64,000 bases of DNA from Octopus vulgaris (GCA_951406725.2 OX597833.1:69316001-69380000); one strand, 5' to 3'. Shown: positions 5,335 to 45,606, counted from the stretch's first letter. Numbers and translations: made by a program. Notes: a model not told the origin generated them from the sequence alone.

Positions 5335-5950
5335 ACCTTATATGAATGTAATAAGTGGGTGAGGGTAAAAAGTTGTTTTACCCTTAGTTTATACAGCAAT
5401 AAGAAAATAGAAGTATCAAGAGGTGATATGTCTATATATTTATTTGAAAAAAAAAACAATTATAACAATATACATACATGTATAACATATTATGTTTTAC
5501 ATATATATAAAATATAAAAATATATAGATATGTATTTATGTATATGTATATGTATGTATATGTATGTAAAAGTGTGTATATATGTATGTATTTTATATGT
5601 ATAACTTGAACTTATGAACTTTCTAAACTCTCTGACGAAGCCCAAAGGCACACCCGCGTACCTTAATCTTATCTACCAAATACGTCATTTCACTGAAGGG
5701 ATGGAGTAAAGTGGGGTGCTATGACCTCTTGGCTGAAACAGCTGTAAGATACTTTCTATACTCTACCTTATATATTTTAGTAATTACTGGTATACTTATT
5801 TTTTTATATATTATATATGCAAAACATATTATGTTATACATGTATGTATATTGTTATAATGGTTGTTTAAAAAAAATAATAAATAGACATAATATAATGT
5901 CTATAAGTTCATGAATACCACATCTTGATCCCCTCCATTTTCTTATTACT
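5335..5950 (+). mobile_element. HHR-bearing Penelope-like pLTR insertion with a diverged inverted arm
   Basis: ~5395-5520 is a diverged reverse complement of ~5795-5950 (shared atgttatacatgtatgtatattgttataat and cttgat..attttcttatt). HHR at 5629; right end runs into (TA)n. Confidence 0.7.
5629..5749 (+). ncRNA. Type I hammerhead ribozyme motif with ~88-nt stem II insert
   Basis: tct-CTGACGA-agcc..ggct-GAAA-cagctg-TA-aga. Stem I is only 3 bp, stem III is the palindrome CAGCTG, cleavage triplet GUA. Confidence 0.7.
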
Positions 5951-6839
5951 ATATATATATATATATATATGTGTGTGTGTGTGTGTGTGTGTGTTTCTGT
6001 GTGTTTGTGTATATGTGTGTGTATATGTATATATATATATATATGTGTATGTGTATGTATGTATCTATGTATGTATGTATGCATGTATGTATAAGTGCAT
6101 GTGTCTATTATGTGTGTGTGTGAGAGAGAGAGAGAGAGAGACAGAGAGAGACAGAGAGACAGAGACAGAAAGAGAGACAGAAAGATCTGGTGAGTTTGGC
6201 TGAAGCGAAGGAATTGTGGAGCCATAAAACTACCATATTTTAATATTCCTTAAAATGTCTTCAAGTATGATTGTCAGATTATGACATTTTTTTCGGTAAA
6301 TATAATTTATTTGAAATGAGAAACTTATTACTTTTAGATTTATAAAGAATGCTTGCCAAAAGAAACGAAATACATAATTATAGATGTGTTCCTGAAATTC
6401 AAAGAAAAATTGCATACCTGCAAAGCAGGTCTGTAGTTAATAATCACATGACTTCGATCAGTTTTTTTTTTTTTTTTTAATATTATTTAAAAAAGAATTG
6501 AGTTAAGATTCGTAAGAAGAAGAAGAAGAATGTTAAACGGATTTCAATCAATAAAAACATCCATGTTAACACATATACTGGGTGGCTAACATTTGAAGTT
6601 GAATGGCATAAATCCGTTTTCGTAGAATACAACTATCTCGTCGCATTCTACAGTTTACTCTTGTTTTGAGAACTGAAGAAAGTAAGTTTTCCTTCTGTAC
6701 GTGAAGGCAATTTCATGGGCAAAATGCTATCATTTCACACTACAATAAAACAATGTAGGATTTTAATGCTGATATCAAATCTTAGCGCAATGCCTGCAAG
6801 TGTAGGGTATGTGGGATACTCGATCATATGCATCCCAAT

Positions 6840-6985
6840 ACAAAACAGGTACTTATTTATCGACTTCGGACGGATGAAAGACAAAGTCGACCTCGGTAGG
6901 ATTTGAACTCTCGACGTGAAGATGAACGAAATGCCGCGCGCGAGGCATTTTGCCGCTATGGTAACCATTCTGCTAGTTCACCGCT
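6840..6985 (-). mobile_element. Decayed F2 SINE
   Basis: ggtacttatttatcgac..ggatgaaagacaaagtcgacctcgg..atttgaactc is the reverse complement of F2. Confidence 0.75.
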
Positions 6986-7095
6986 TAAATGATTTTTATG
7001 GCGACAAATACTAACGTCCCTATACACACACACACACACACACACACACACACACACACACACACACACACACACACACATATATATATATATAT

Positions 7096-7510
7096 AGGCG
7101 CAGGAGTGGCTGTGTGGTAAGTAGCTTGCTAACCAACCACATGGTTCCGGGTTCAGTCCCACTGCGTGGCATCTTGGGCAAGTGTCTTCTGCTATAGCCC
7201 CTGGCCGACCAATGCCTTGTGAGAGGATTTGGTAGACGGAAACTGAAAGAAGCGTGTCGTATATATGTATATATATATATATATATGTGTGTGTGTGTAT
7301 TTGTGCGTCTGTGTTTGTCCTCCCCAACATAGCTTGACAAGCGATGGTGGTGTGTTTACGTCCCCGTAACTTAGCGGTTCGGCAAAAGGGACCGATAGAA
7401 TAAGTACTGGGCTTACAAAGAATAAGTCCCGGGGTCGATTTTCTCGACTAAAGGCGGTGCTCCAGCATGGCTGCAGTCAAATGACTGAAACAAGTAAAAG
7501 AGTAAAAGAG
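7096..7510 (+). mobile_element. tRNA-derived SINE group F1 (CORE-like; internal TA/TG microsatellite; CR1-like tail)
   Basis: A-box-like gtggctgtgtggt, B-box-like ggttcagtccc, CORE-like cttgggcaagt, tail ggcggtgctccagcatgg..(gtaaaaga)n. At least 6 similar copies in the window. Confidence 0.9.
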
Positions 7511-8272
7511 TATATAATTCTCAGGTGTGTGTAAAAGAGTAAAAGAGTATATAATTCTCAGGTGTGTGTGTGTGTGTGTGTGTGTGCACGAACCCAGATA
7601 TTTTCATGTGCTCAATTGAAATACACCATGCTCTTGTTTCTAGTTCTATGTATCCTCTTGATATCAATAAATCACCCCAGCTAAAACGTATTACACGATT
7701 ATCACATCCAATATTATTAGAGTTCCGAGAAAGGAAGCGAAAACATCATTCCGTTATTAAAAATGCTTTCTGCCAGTGTAAGCAAATTCTTCAGATACTT
7801 ACTTTCCACATCGCAATGATTCTGAGGAAGATTGCTGAAGGATTATTGCATGTATATATAAATATTATACAAGCCTTTGAGTTATGTTTTGCAATATTCC
7901 AATGAACAAAAAACATATTACTTTGTCGTTTCCAAACTCTACCATAATTTTCTTATGTTTGCTTTTTTTCCGACATCGGAGTTTTATGAAGCAAAACACC
8001 TTTTTAAACATGGATTATGTAAGAATGTTTGAGAGAAATCATATATACAAAATATACTTCAGTACAGCAATTGTGAGTGCTGGAATTATTTTCTCATGAA
8101 ACAAGGACTTGGAATGCATTGTACATGTGTGTATACGCATGTGTGTGTGTGTGAGTGTATGCGTGTGTCTCTATCTCTGTCTGTGCGAGTGTTTGTTCTA
8201 ACTATATGGCTTCTGTTAGCAACTAACTTGTGAGCCAAGGTAAATATATGTTTCCTACTTCTTTATGCAAAA

Positions 8273-42979: not shown

Positions 42980-43430
42980 AATTACCTATTTATTAGTATA
43001 CTGATAATATAAGTAGGTTTTTGACTGACAGAGTAACGAATATCGTATCACAGGTCTAGGTGCAGGCATAGGCCCTATTGCGACTGAGAGGAACCTTTTG
43101 CAAATGCCTTGATGCATAGCCCTATTGCAAATGCCTTGATGCAAAGCCCTATTGCGGCTCACAATGTCGCGCACATGATTGTGATGCATGTGCCTGGTGT
43201 ACCCTTATCAGACGGGTAGTCATGATGGGTATACTGTACTTCGTATATTTTACCCCAGTATCACTTTGATGGCATGCACTGCTCTCTCAGACAATAATTA
43301 CCTATTTATTAGTATACTGATTATATAAGTAGGTTTTTGACTGACAGAGTAACGAATATCGTATCACAGGTCTAGGTGCAGGCATAGCCCTATTGCGACT
43401 GAGAGGAACCTTTTGCAAATGCCTTGATGC
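42980..43430 (+). mobile_element. Truncated (TAA)-tailed retroposon (43165-43296) flanked by a ~135-bp direct duplication
   Basis: 42980-43115 is nearly identical to 43296-43430. Confidence 0.85.
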
Positions 43431-45019
43431 CAGTTCTCTTTGGCACTGTGAAGGAGTTTGCGTATGCTTCATTTTTTTTCAATATATTATTAATTTAAAT
43501 AGTTTTAAGTGGAATTTTTTGCAGGCAGCAATCATGTAAAAACCACGTAAAAGAAAATTTCCTGGGTTCGAAGAAATCGATTTTTCCCAGGCACCGAACT
43601 TTTTAGGCCTTGTGCTAGAGTTTGAAACCAATATTTCCCTCTTCTAATAATGGTGAACATAAACCATTTCCCCCATAGAAATCGCCGACGACGTGTTGCT
43701 TCAAAAGGAATGTAACAACAATTTCGCACGTATAATGATAGCTTCTCATCATCCTTAGTGTAGTGACTGATATGGTTTTGTTATGCTTATTTGCAAACTC
43801 GGGGTGACGAGAGGTTAGAGTGCAGCCCATTGTGTTCAATTCCACTGCTCATCTTCATATACTCACACCTCTCTCCCCTTCTCTGTTTATTTCTCCATCC
43901 TTCACTTTCTCTTTCCCTCCCTCTTTATGTATATATATATATATGAATATATATACACACACACACACACACACACATATATATATATATATATATATAT
44001 ATATATATATATATATATAAAAATATATATATATATATATATATACATATATATTATATATATATAATGCAGGTACAGAAGTGTACCTACACGTGTGCTG
44101 TTGGCGATTTCTTCTTTTCTTTCGTTGACTATAGCCCTTTCTCCTTTCCAGCGGGCTTGCACGCAGTGTCTGTTTACCAAATTCGCTCAGAAGTTATTAG
44201 TCTGACTAGAACTATAACAGATGACATTTACTGCAGATGGAGACCTGTATTACAACTAAGTCCGAAAGTACGTGGTGCCAAATCAAGTTAATTAGACACT
44301 CTATCGCCATACTATGATGTGTGAAGTTTCATTCGTTGAAACCAACCGAATTTATCTTCCCGTTCTTCAGGGAAAGATAGTGATACCCCTAACCCAGTGT
44401 TTAACACCAAAACCTGACGTCTGATACTCTCTAGACTATCCACATGCTGAAAGATTTGCGAAGTCATTTCAAGTGAGGATAACACCCTGAAATTACAAAT
44501 CTGGAAGGCCATGAAAAAAATTCTTTAGCACTGTTCTTGAATATGCATGTGTGAAATTGGGATGCACCGAGACTGGAATATCGAATTCATCAATCAACAA
44601 AAATCTGTTAGTTCTCATCGGCTCAGAATAAAATCTGAAATTTGTTTTCTCCCTATCTTTGGTCAATCGCTCAATATATCTATCAATCAGTGTATCTAAC
44701 TACCTATATCTTCCTATATCTATCTTTCGATCTACATTTTCCTACGTATATCTATATACTTATATATAGGTATATATATTTATATATATTTACATATATT
44801 TTCTTATATCCACCTACATAAATCTATATTTGTCTATATACCAAGTTATCAAACTACCTACCTATGTATCAACTAACCTACCTACCTGTCCGTTTGTCTA
44901 GCTGTCTGTCTTTCTATTTATCTATCTATACCTTTCTCTCCGTATATATATATGTATGTATGTATATATATATATATATATATATATATATATATATATA
45001 TATATATATATATATATAT

Positions 45020-45310
45020 ATTAAATTAGAGATAAAACCACTATTAGGCAAAACATATATATATATATATACATATAAAAGATAATGGTGTCATTGAGAC
45101 CCAAAGGCGTCAGGTAATGCTGAATAGGTGCTATAGTCAGACCTTGGTTAAGTTCTAGATTCGGTAATATTGCGAATAAAGGGTTCAACGTTGGTTCTGT
45201 GTCAGCGTGTGTATATATGAATTTTTTTTTGCCTAATAAGATAAAACAGCTGTAAGACCCTCTATCTATAAATACTCTAATATCTATACAGCCTTGATTT
45301 TTTTTATCTT
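45020..45310. mobile_element. pLTR-like fragments in (TA)n
   Basis: ttaaattagagataaaaccactatta matches 35314; aaacagctgtaaga at 45244 matches the HHR 3' half at 5736. Confidence 0.55.
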
Positions 45311-45339
45311 ATATATGTATATATATATATATATATATA

Positions 45340-45606
45340 TAATGTAAAGTATAGAAGCCATCTTAACATGGCTAACCACATAGGGGAGGGGGTGTTACTG
45401 TAGCTTTATAGCCCCAGGAGATCGTCGTCTCCAGCTGGCTTTAGACGCCATTTCAGTGCCCTTTTAGTTGGAGACGACGATCTCCTGGGGCTATAAAGCT
45501 ACAGTAACACCCTCTCCCCTATGTGGTTAGCCATGTTAAGATGGCTTCTATACTTTACATTATCGAGCGATTACTGTTTCAATCTCATTCTGAGATTTAA
45601 TAATGC
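45340..45606. mobile_element. Inverted insertion in (TA)n, diverged relative of the 37667 unit
   Basis: 45340-45433 is the reverse complement of 45469-45562; shares aagccatct..atggcta, ggggtgttactgt and tagccccagg with 37726-37793. Confidence 0.85.

Follow-up and report, generated by a model that had tools for sequence, protein, structure and literature searches.

The stretch of DNA analysed here, 64,000 nt of the Octopus vulgaris genome (GCA_951406725.2 OX597833.1:69316001-69380000, called the window below, with positions counted from its first letter), contains a series of insertions that carry type I hammerhead ribozyme motifs and that we assign to Penelope-like elements (PLEs) of the Hydra clade and to non-coding elements likely to be mobilised with them. 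The window has a GC content of 35.6% and many TA, CA and ATAG microsatellites; the whole genome comprises 2.8 Gb in 227 contigs. A preliminary description made from the sequence had pointed to six hammerhead sites, and all six are present, the coordinates it gave being the low ends of the motifs. A strict descriptor, composed only after the motifs had been seen, found seven: it demanded the core, a stem I of at least 3 bp, a stem II of at least 3 bp whose first position could be unpaired, and a palindromic stem III.

The seven motifs fall into six families, a to f. The positions of C3 and H17 and the stem III inserts are +5632/5746 and CAGCTG in a, -34325/34276 and CAGACTG in b, -34900/34822 and CAATTG in c, +35435/35476 and CGATCG in d, and +38281/38314, with a mirror copy at -37922/37889, and CCATGG in e. 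Family f, with C3 and cut site at -45995/45926, lies just beyond the range covered earlier. All six share the core C3 U4 G5 A6 N7 G8 A9 / G12 A13 A14 A15.1 / U16.1 H17, with C at position 4 in e, and have a stem I of 3-7 bp, a stem II of at least 3 bp and a stem III of 2-3 bp plus A15.1-U16.1. No BLASTN match among a, b, c, d, e and f exceeded 27 nt; judged by their sequences they are different families, so that the earlier count of at least five unrelated families rises to six. The insertions in the window, as we interpret them, are the following (g and h lack a complete hammerhead).

5343..5522, minus strand: inverted left arm of family a, 3' region only and without hammerhead, +53 to +260 past the cut site
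5501..5950, plus strand: main arm of family a, 3' end of an older Hydra-type PLE; short terminus at about +212 in (TA)10
5629..5749, plus strand: type I hammerhead a, with a 96-nt stem II region and a 3-bp stem I; predicted cut after 5746
34082..34534, minus strand: arm of family b, a 5'-truncated unit of a 563-nt tandem retrozyme; short terminus at about +193 in (TA)10
34270..34331, minus strand: type I hammerhead b; predicted cut after 34276
34529..34600, plus strand: short inverted arm of family b (+95 to +170), then (TA)30
34661..34925, minus strand: arm of family c, 3' end of an autonomous Hydra-clade PLE; long terminus at +161 in (TA)30
34817..34905, minus strand: type I hammerhead c, with a 60-nt stem II region; predicted cut after 34822
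34926..35165, plus strand: inverted fragment of the family c open reading frame (ORF), 75 codons around the DKT motif, ending abruptly at a TA array
35304..35397, minus strand: inverted arm of family d; short terminus at +120 in (TA)38
35398..35672, plus strand: main arm of family d, a non-coding element of about 300 nt with a near-fixed 5' start; long terminus at about +200 in (TA)8
35429..35482, plus strand: type I hammerhead d; predicted cut after 35476
37667..38043, minus strand: left arm of family e, one unit of a 360-nt tandem retrozyme; long terminus at +222 in (TA)19; hammerhead at 37883-37928
38043..38489, plus strand: right arm of family e, 1.25 units; short terminus at +178 in (TA)19; hammerhead at 38275-38320
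45072..45310, no strand assigned: a seventh family, h, two-armed and truncated inside the hammerhead, whose 3' half alone is left at 45243-45259 (plus strand)
45342..45606, no strand assigned: insertion g, two-armed and TA-flanked, 72-76% identical to the 3' part of e and truncated below the hammerhead
45639..46020, minus strand: arm of family f, a 5'-truncated unit of a 535-nt tandem retrozyme; long terminus at +291 in (TA)16; hammerhead at 45919-46002, predicted cut after 45926

The palindromic or near-palindromic stem III, different each time, had been thought hard to explain by chance. No window shuffled with preservation of dinucleotides (200- or 1000-nt blocks) gave a descriptor match in 300 trials with the palindrome rule on, which bears out that view and shows that such motifs are not equally frequent in shuffled sequence; with the rule off, a single match was obtained in 8 of 300 shuffles. 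The stem II regions of a to f measure 96, 30, 60, 23, 15 and 51 nt. The earlier claim that stem II is much larger than in known elements therefore holds for a, c and f, which clearly exceed the 12-26 nt of the published Hydra table (PMC8557442; here and below, statements on published work refer to the accessible parts of the sources), but not for b, d and e. An Rfam scan of the window at E<=1 returned 96 matches, all of them microsatellite artefacts below the gathering score, and no hammerhead family. As long stem II variants are missed by Rfam, hammerhead counts in such genomes are too low.

Families a and c appear, from their motifs, to be 3' ends of Hydra-clade PLEs. The 240 nt that adjoin the arm with hammerhead c encode a reverse transcriptase (RT) fragment with the DKT motif. 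A genome search with this fragment gave 1911 candidates, 150 of which were scored, many lying in open frames of 800-1091 codons, and 20 candidate autonomous loci of 9.9 kb each were retrieved. The intact ORFs, 836-1072 aa from the first Met, contain RW(K/R/A), DKT, a YRDD core, CxCX5C, an xIY...YIG-type pair, CxxC and CxH. ADKT occurs in every intact ORF, with RWK in those of the L086 type, RWR in the L090 type and RWA in the L091 type; in L086, L090 and L095 the C-terminal order is CxCX5C, then xIY...YIG/YVG, CxxC and CxH. Published Hydra elements have DKT in place of DKG, RWK, a CxCX5C linker, CxxC and CxH and no CCHH; hammerheads are universal among them, and almost all Hydra families insert in (TA)n (PMC8557442). 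Five of the loci (L086, L090, L091, L094 and L098) combine a canonical sense hammerhead near the 3' end with insertion in (TA)n, as Hydra elements do; the sense hammerhead lies within a 3' untranslated region (UTR) of 1.2-2 kb, about 45 nt ahead of (TA)n. Among ESM Atlas neighbours, RVT_1 is found in 17-48% of members for the middle part of the ORF and GIY-YIG in 11% for the C-terminus, which we count as one source of evidence. The L086 unit, at 4672 nt, exceeds the published Hydra tendency of less than 3 kb, which is a tendency and no diagnostic motif. Membership in Naiad or Chlamys was rejected: the endonuclease is C-terminal, the motif is DKT and not DKA, and a canonical hammerhead is present. 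The L086 and L090 ORFs also carry two long Asn-rich low-complexity inserts, one after the RT thumb and one before the endonuclease linker, with the frame kept.

Two of the autonomous loci, L092 and L098, are 93% identical to the c 3' end and carry the ORF fragment of the window at 94-95%. Since they match both pieces, c is best seen as an autonomous Hydra element that was inserted with two arms and is now broken; the remainder, the 3' part of the inverted arm, was not found within the window. The idea that hammerhead c is antisense to its ORF was rejected, because it is the inverted arm that contains this ORF fragment, and full elements carry the hammerhead in sense orientation. Family a is older, with 83-88% identity between copies. 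In one of seven extended a loci (L246), the decayed remains of a Hydra RT and endonuclease are found upstream, correctly oriented and flanked on both sides by a-family arms.

The other four families are non-coding. Families b, e and f have tandem periods of 563, 360 and 535 nt with one type I hammerhead per unit, and their arrays hold up to 11-12 hammerheads per arm. Their longest ORF from a Met is only 50-52 aa, and their top copies are 97-100% identical. By the published definition, these sequence features make them young non-LTR (non-long terminal repeat) retrozymes. Family d showed no tandem period among 19 loci, and its copies (L127-L145) begin within about 10 nt of one point roughly 48 nt upstream of the core. 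The family has the appearance of a short derivative resembling short interspersed elements (SINEs), and the fixed 5' start is possibly the transcription start of a short PLE-dependent element, although no convincing RNA polymerase III (Pol III) boxes were seen in it by eye. No RNA entries are listed for family e, the one family looked up. When four contig sets of guessed RNA status were compared with an e array, two contigs of exactly 390 nt (360 + 30) from two studies were found; their length would suit assembly along a cyclic path, but a tandem array gives the same, and we do not use them as evidence. Further tandem retrozymes lie at L098:7714-8468 (related to b, 568-nt period, 71%) and at L166:3082-4512 (related to e, with a 359-nt period and a stem III insert of four bases). 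At L095:9631, L096:8968 and L187:3940 there is a hammerhead family with a longer, 14-nt non-palindromic stem III insert and a short stem II, which could act as a monomer.

What joins the coding and the non-coding families is the way they are inserted. In every family the 3' ends fall mainly at two sites, both downstream of the predicted cleavage point: +44/+161 in c, +120/about +200 in d, +178/+222 in e, about +160-195/+291 in f, about +192/+252-295 in b and about +212/+385 in a. Among the distinct outer ends of b-f, 134 of 148 lie at a TA run, as compared with 8.3% of random positions, and those of family c are TA-flanked in 25 of 25 cases. Two-armed insertions of b-f combine a long with a short end in 63 of 71 cases, the rest being short-short (4) or long-long (4), and the same combination was found in 10 of 10 e arrays picked purely by length. 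The loci of this tally were the best matches to queries containing one end, and a few of the "ends" counted for b and f are places where the alignment broke off. The tally omits family a, since its reference extended into a microsatellite. The long and short ends are the known one-sided PLE "tail", which in vitro arises from two RT start sites as both target strands are nicked and extended (Frangieh 2024, PMC11167929).

The preliminary description had placed every hammerhead in a TA-targeted, tail-out inverted insertion. The genome-wide tally agrees with this, and d and e show the full two-armed, TA-flanked pattern within the window. The others there do not: a has two arms, but its left end lacks a (TA)5 run; the inverted arm of b is just 72 nt and stops at an unusual position; in c the inverted ORF fragment lacks its 3' part; and f is a single arm. 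Some insertions stand back to back in shared TA tracts, at 33800-35760 (b, c and d) and at 44940-46020 (a d-stub, h, g and f), as expected if every insertion leaves fresh TA targets. The inverted arms, if read through, would give long double-stranded RNA.

The ribozyme core is well conserved. All ten scored core positions are intact in 175 of 189 homologous copies found by BLAST (overlapping loci may double-count a few of them), the majority base equals the core in each family, and differences occur at 14 of 1890 core positions as compared with 254 of 11247 other positions. Conservation of the core within families had been named earlier as a check, and it is borne out. In 11 c-related motifs, 94.1% of 253 pair cells are kept and six pairs are doubly changed, including pairs in stem III and in the inner stem II hairpin; the hairpin lies outside the descriptor and changes from C-G to U-A in two sequences. 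Shuffles matched the percentage paired in 0 of 500 cases, the doubly changed pairs in 23 of 500 and the pair types in 109 of 500. A predicted double-hammerhead dimer lies 0-3.1 kcal/mol per motif from the dimer optimum for a, b, c, d and f, and 8.0 for e. That the dimer fold is near the optimum agrees, as far as prediction goes, with the published dimer model, and the hammerheads are predicted to cut RNA as dimers. We think that they are probably active in self-cleavage.

These elements are abundant. In a blind sample of sixty 10-kb stretches at round coordinates, 28 motifs were found in 19 stretches (seven of them from one array), as compared with 0-2 (mean 0.5) in 20 shuffles, and (TA)5 lay within 450 nt downstream of 18 of the 28 motifs as compared with a 29% background. 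This corresponds to roughly 100,000-130,000 hammerheads per genome, with wide uncertainty. Across the retrieved loci, about 25 visibly different motif families could be told apart, with stem II regions of 10-105 nt. The ORFs, the motif families, the blind sample and the end tally together support the earlier suggestion of a diverse hammerhead, PLE and retrozyme community landing in (TA)n.

Taken together, these data suggest, with a probability of about 0.8, that a and c are 3' ends of Hydra-clade PLEs and that b, e, f and d are likely hitch-hikers, each with a type I hammerhead; we hold the assignment of the families and their mode of insertion to be very probably right. Several observations weigh against this reading. 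Neither Pfam, used on three of the ORFs, nor a PDB sequence search recognised a relevant domain. The thresholds that separate long from short ends were fixed after the ends had been seen. Covariation was examined in the c group alone, and stems I-III were part of the selecting descriptor, which demands pairing. In monomer folding the hammerhead was never the best structure; z-scores were unremarkable for a-d, and forcing the hammerhead cost 2.7-6.5 kcal/mol, and 15.1 for e. Family e, which has the longest arrays studied, is predicted to favour a rod by 15 kcal/mol as a monomer and 8 per motif as a dimer. No sequence link to b, d, e or f was found in any 3' UTR of the 20 autonomous loci, so that the mobilising partner of these four families is suggested by the common insertion signature only; on that signature, they are likely to be mobilised by the same enzymes as Hydra-clade PLEs.

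Because of this missing link, b, d, e and f could owe their mobilisation to a different PLE clade, for instance Naiad or Neptune; cephalopod Naiads with a (TA)n preference are listed (Craig 2021, PMC8557442), and Hydra was the one clade searched for in this genome. The same source describes cephalopod Naiads as long inactive remnants without canonical hammerheads, whereas b, e and f copies are 97-100% identical and the Hydra ORFs are intact and young. Moreover, the base of stem II often contains unpaired nucleotides, as it does in the hammerheads tabulated for Hydra (PMC8557442). We therefore consider mobilisation by another clade unlikely. That the motifs are chance matches in AT-rich repeats, or in foldback elements akin to miniature inverted-repeat transposable elements (MITEs), is scarcely credible. 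The lack of an Rfam match and the foldback-like appearance of d and g would fit such an origin, but the absence of matches in shuffled windows, the excess in the blind sample and the covariation do not, nor do the asymmetric ends, the variable inversion points and the RT ORFs. The MITE or foldback reading of the insertions was rejected on the unequal ends and variable inversion points.

If the families are Hydra-clade PLEs and their hitch-hikers, what served as the template? Since every 3' end is located past the cut site, the RT must have copied RNA that was uncut or had been re-joined there. By the published Poseidon biochemistry, an RT-GIY-YIG protein would nick both strands of the TA repeat, and two cDNAs, primed from two internal start sites, would give two arms and a one-sided tail. 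The arrays suggest in addition that paired hammerheads may cleave multimeric transcripts into single units, which would then be circularised, and that an RT running round one circle may produce arrays of up to 12 units, with both arms copied from a single template. For haplotype comparison 20 whole arrays were retrieved. Units of e differed at 1.7 sites when they came from the same arm, at 2.2 when they came from opposite arms and at 6.4 when they came from different insertions; the corresponding values for f were 5.1 (driven by one array), 1.3 and 7.0. One haplotype ran across the inversion in eight of the eight arrays with full units in both arms, and in L099 and L104 private variants were common to the pseudo-long terminal repeat (pLTR), the 3' end and the inverted arm. 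The simplest reading of these sequences would be a single-unit bottleneck through hammerhead cleavage, circularisation and rolling-circle reverse transcription, a scheme proposed in 2014 (Cervera 2014, PMC4209133). We give an even chance to an RNA circle being the usual template.

Alternatively, a linear uncut multimeric transcript may have been the template, with the hammerhead only trimming or limiting transcripts or being a passenger, and with homogeneity coming from the source arrays or from duplication or conversion after insertion. In vitro, the Poseidon hammerhead is dispensable for insertion, its mutants being without effect, and uncut RNA is the main substrate (PMC11167929). Local amplification by unequal crossover has been discussed (Li et al. 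2026, 10.64898/2026.07.22.740005). Some arrays are also awkward for a single-unit circle: L226 is a mosaic of family variants, L236 (G000:C28:10731600-10740000) repeats with a four-unit period, and L230 alternates one variant with a two-unit periodicity, while in L086 the pLTR and the 3' end have four differences in 367 nt. Multimeric circles as templates, or later tandem duplication, could give the higher-order periodicity of L236 and L230. The 5' ends of the arms are, by eye, not piled up at the cut site, which fits uncut and circular RNA alike. Against a linear template stand the conservation of the core in all families and the many insertion-specific haplotypes that are fixed in all units and both inverted arms of very young (97-99% identical) insertions. 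Such fixation needs either a single-unit bottleneck or very fast homogenisation across the inversion. We regard the linear template as a serious possibility, though one with the odds somewhat against it.

The kind of system described here is already known, also for octopus. Hydra-1_Obim of Octopus bimaculoides has 2507 bp, (TA)n, a hammerhead and no pLTR (Craig et al. 2021, PMC8557442), and for PLE hammerheads both the palindromic stem III and folding as dimers have been published (PMC4209133, PMC6765202). Novelty, which the preliminary description had left open, is thus low for the kind of element, while the families themselves are new as far as the accessible sources go; also new are the long stem II inserts, the hammerhead density and the retrozymes with a Hydra insertion signature. 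Like published Hydra elements, a, c and their relatives have RWK, DKT, a CxCX5C linker, and CxxC and CxH around conserved E and N in a single ORF (PMC8557442), together with a sense type I hammerhead near the 3' end, a (TA)n target, a pLTR and an inverted 5'-truncated arm. They differ in size (about 4.5-5.5 kb, with 836-1072 aa ORFs swollen by the Asn-rich inserts and 3' UTRs of 1.2-2 kb, as compared with generally less than 3 kb), in the stem II region (up to 96-105 nt as compared with 12-26 nt) and in the tail (44-170 nt as compared with 30-40 bp). Unlike the published Hydra entries, they also have many intact young copies.

Families b, e and f share with animal non-LTR retrozymes the non-coding tandem units of a few hundred nucleotides with one type I hammerhead each (Cervera and de la Pena 2020, PMC7229834; Li, Clavereau and Pollet 2026, 10.64898/2026.07.22.740005), the dispersed monomers to multimers and the co-occurring PLEs. 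The units of b and f, at 535-563 nt, are longer than the published ones of about 300-390 nt, and the arrays in octopus, known from sequence alone, are discrete two-armed (TA)n insertions with PLE long and short ends, as which published retrozymes were not found described in the accessible texts. Poseidon PAc of Anolis likewise has two 3' ends downstream of the hammerhead, a tail at one end and an AT-rich target (Frangieh et al. 2024, PMC11167929). It belongs to another clade, and its hammerhead is of minimal form and overlaps the ORF start, whereas here it lies in a long 3' UTR and has a full palindromic stem III. The SINE-like hammerhead elements of schistosomes (PMC6765202) are short and non-coding, as is d, whose copies start at a fixed point about 48 nt before the core; d differs in its lack of tandem arrays and of convincing Pol III boxes and in its PLE two-arm insertion. 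A 2026 repeat annotation of Octopus vulgaris reports 31 recently active Penelope-like families (PMC13282606), and the words "ribozyme", "retrozyme" and "Hydra" are absent from its main text. In the openly searchable literature, with subscription papers, Repbase and Dfam outside this scope, we found no earlier report of larger intact Hydra families, 51-105-nt stem II regions or 44-170-nt tails, nor of retrozymes with the PLE two-arm signature or of the haplotype pattern within insertions.

Outside the hammerhead insertions, the window holds a 37-nt minisatellite (35 copies), a 183-nt SINE-like tandem (three copies), a 33-nt tandem and a dispersed SINE-like repeat of about 230 nt with many copies; coordinates noted for these other repeats are 12753-14023, 22269-22820, 40369-40595 and 59409-59872. 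A short ORF at 20967-21317 on the minus strand presumably resembles the C-terminal end of an RT protein of the long interspersed element (LINE) type.

PLE hammerheads are nearly universal, yet dispensable for insertion in the sole in vitro system. The octopus genome combines young, intact ORFs of the Hydra clade with several retrozyme families of very recent origin and with two-armed insertions in their thousands. The common insertion signature links retrozymes mechanistically to PLE enzymes, and the circular-template model can be tested on genome sequence alone, by the way variants are distributed within individual insertions. We tentatively suggest, at somewhat less than even odds, that the genome is a fossil record of hammerhead-made circles, in which both arms of each insertion have been copied by Hydra PLE enzymes from one unit-length circle, for the 0.36-0.56 kb retrozymes and the 4.7-kb autonomous element alike. 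If true, this would explain what PLE hammerheads do and how pLTRs arise; holding some 100,000 hammerheads from dozens of active families, the octopus genome would rank among the densest known ribozyme landscapes and offer a ready-made test system.

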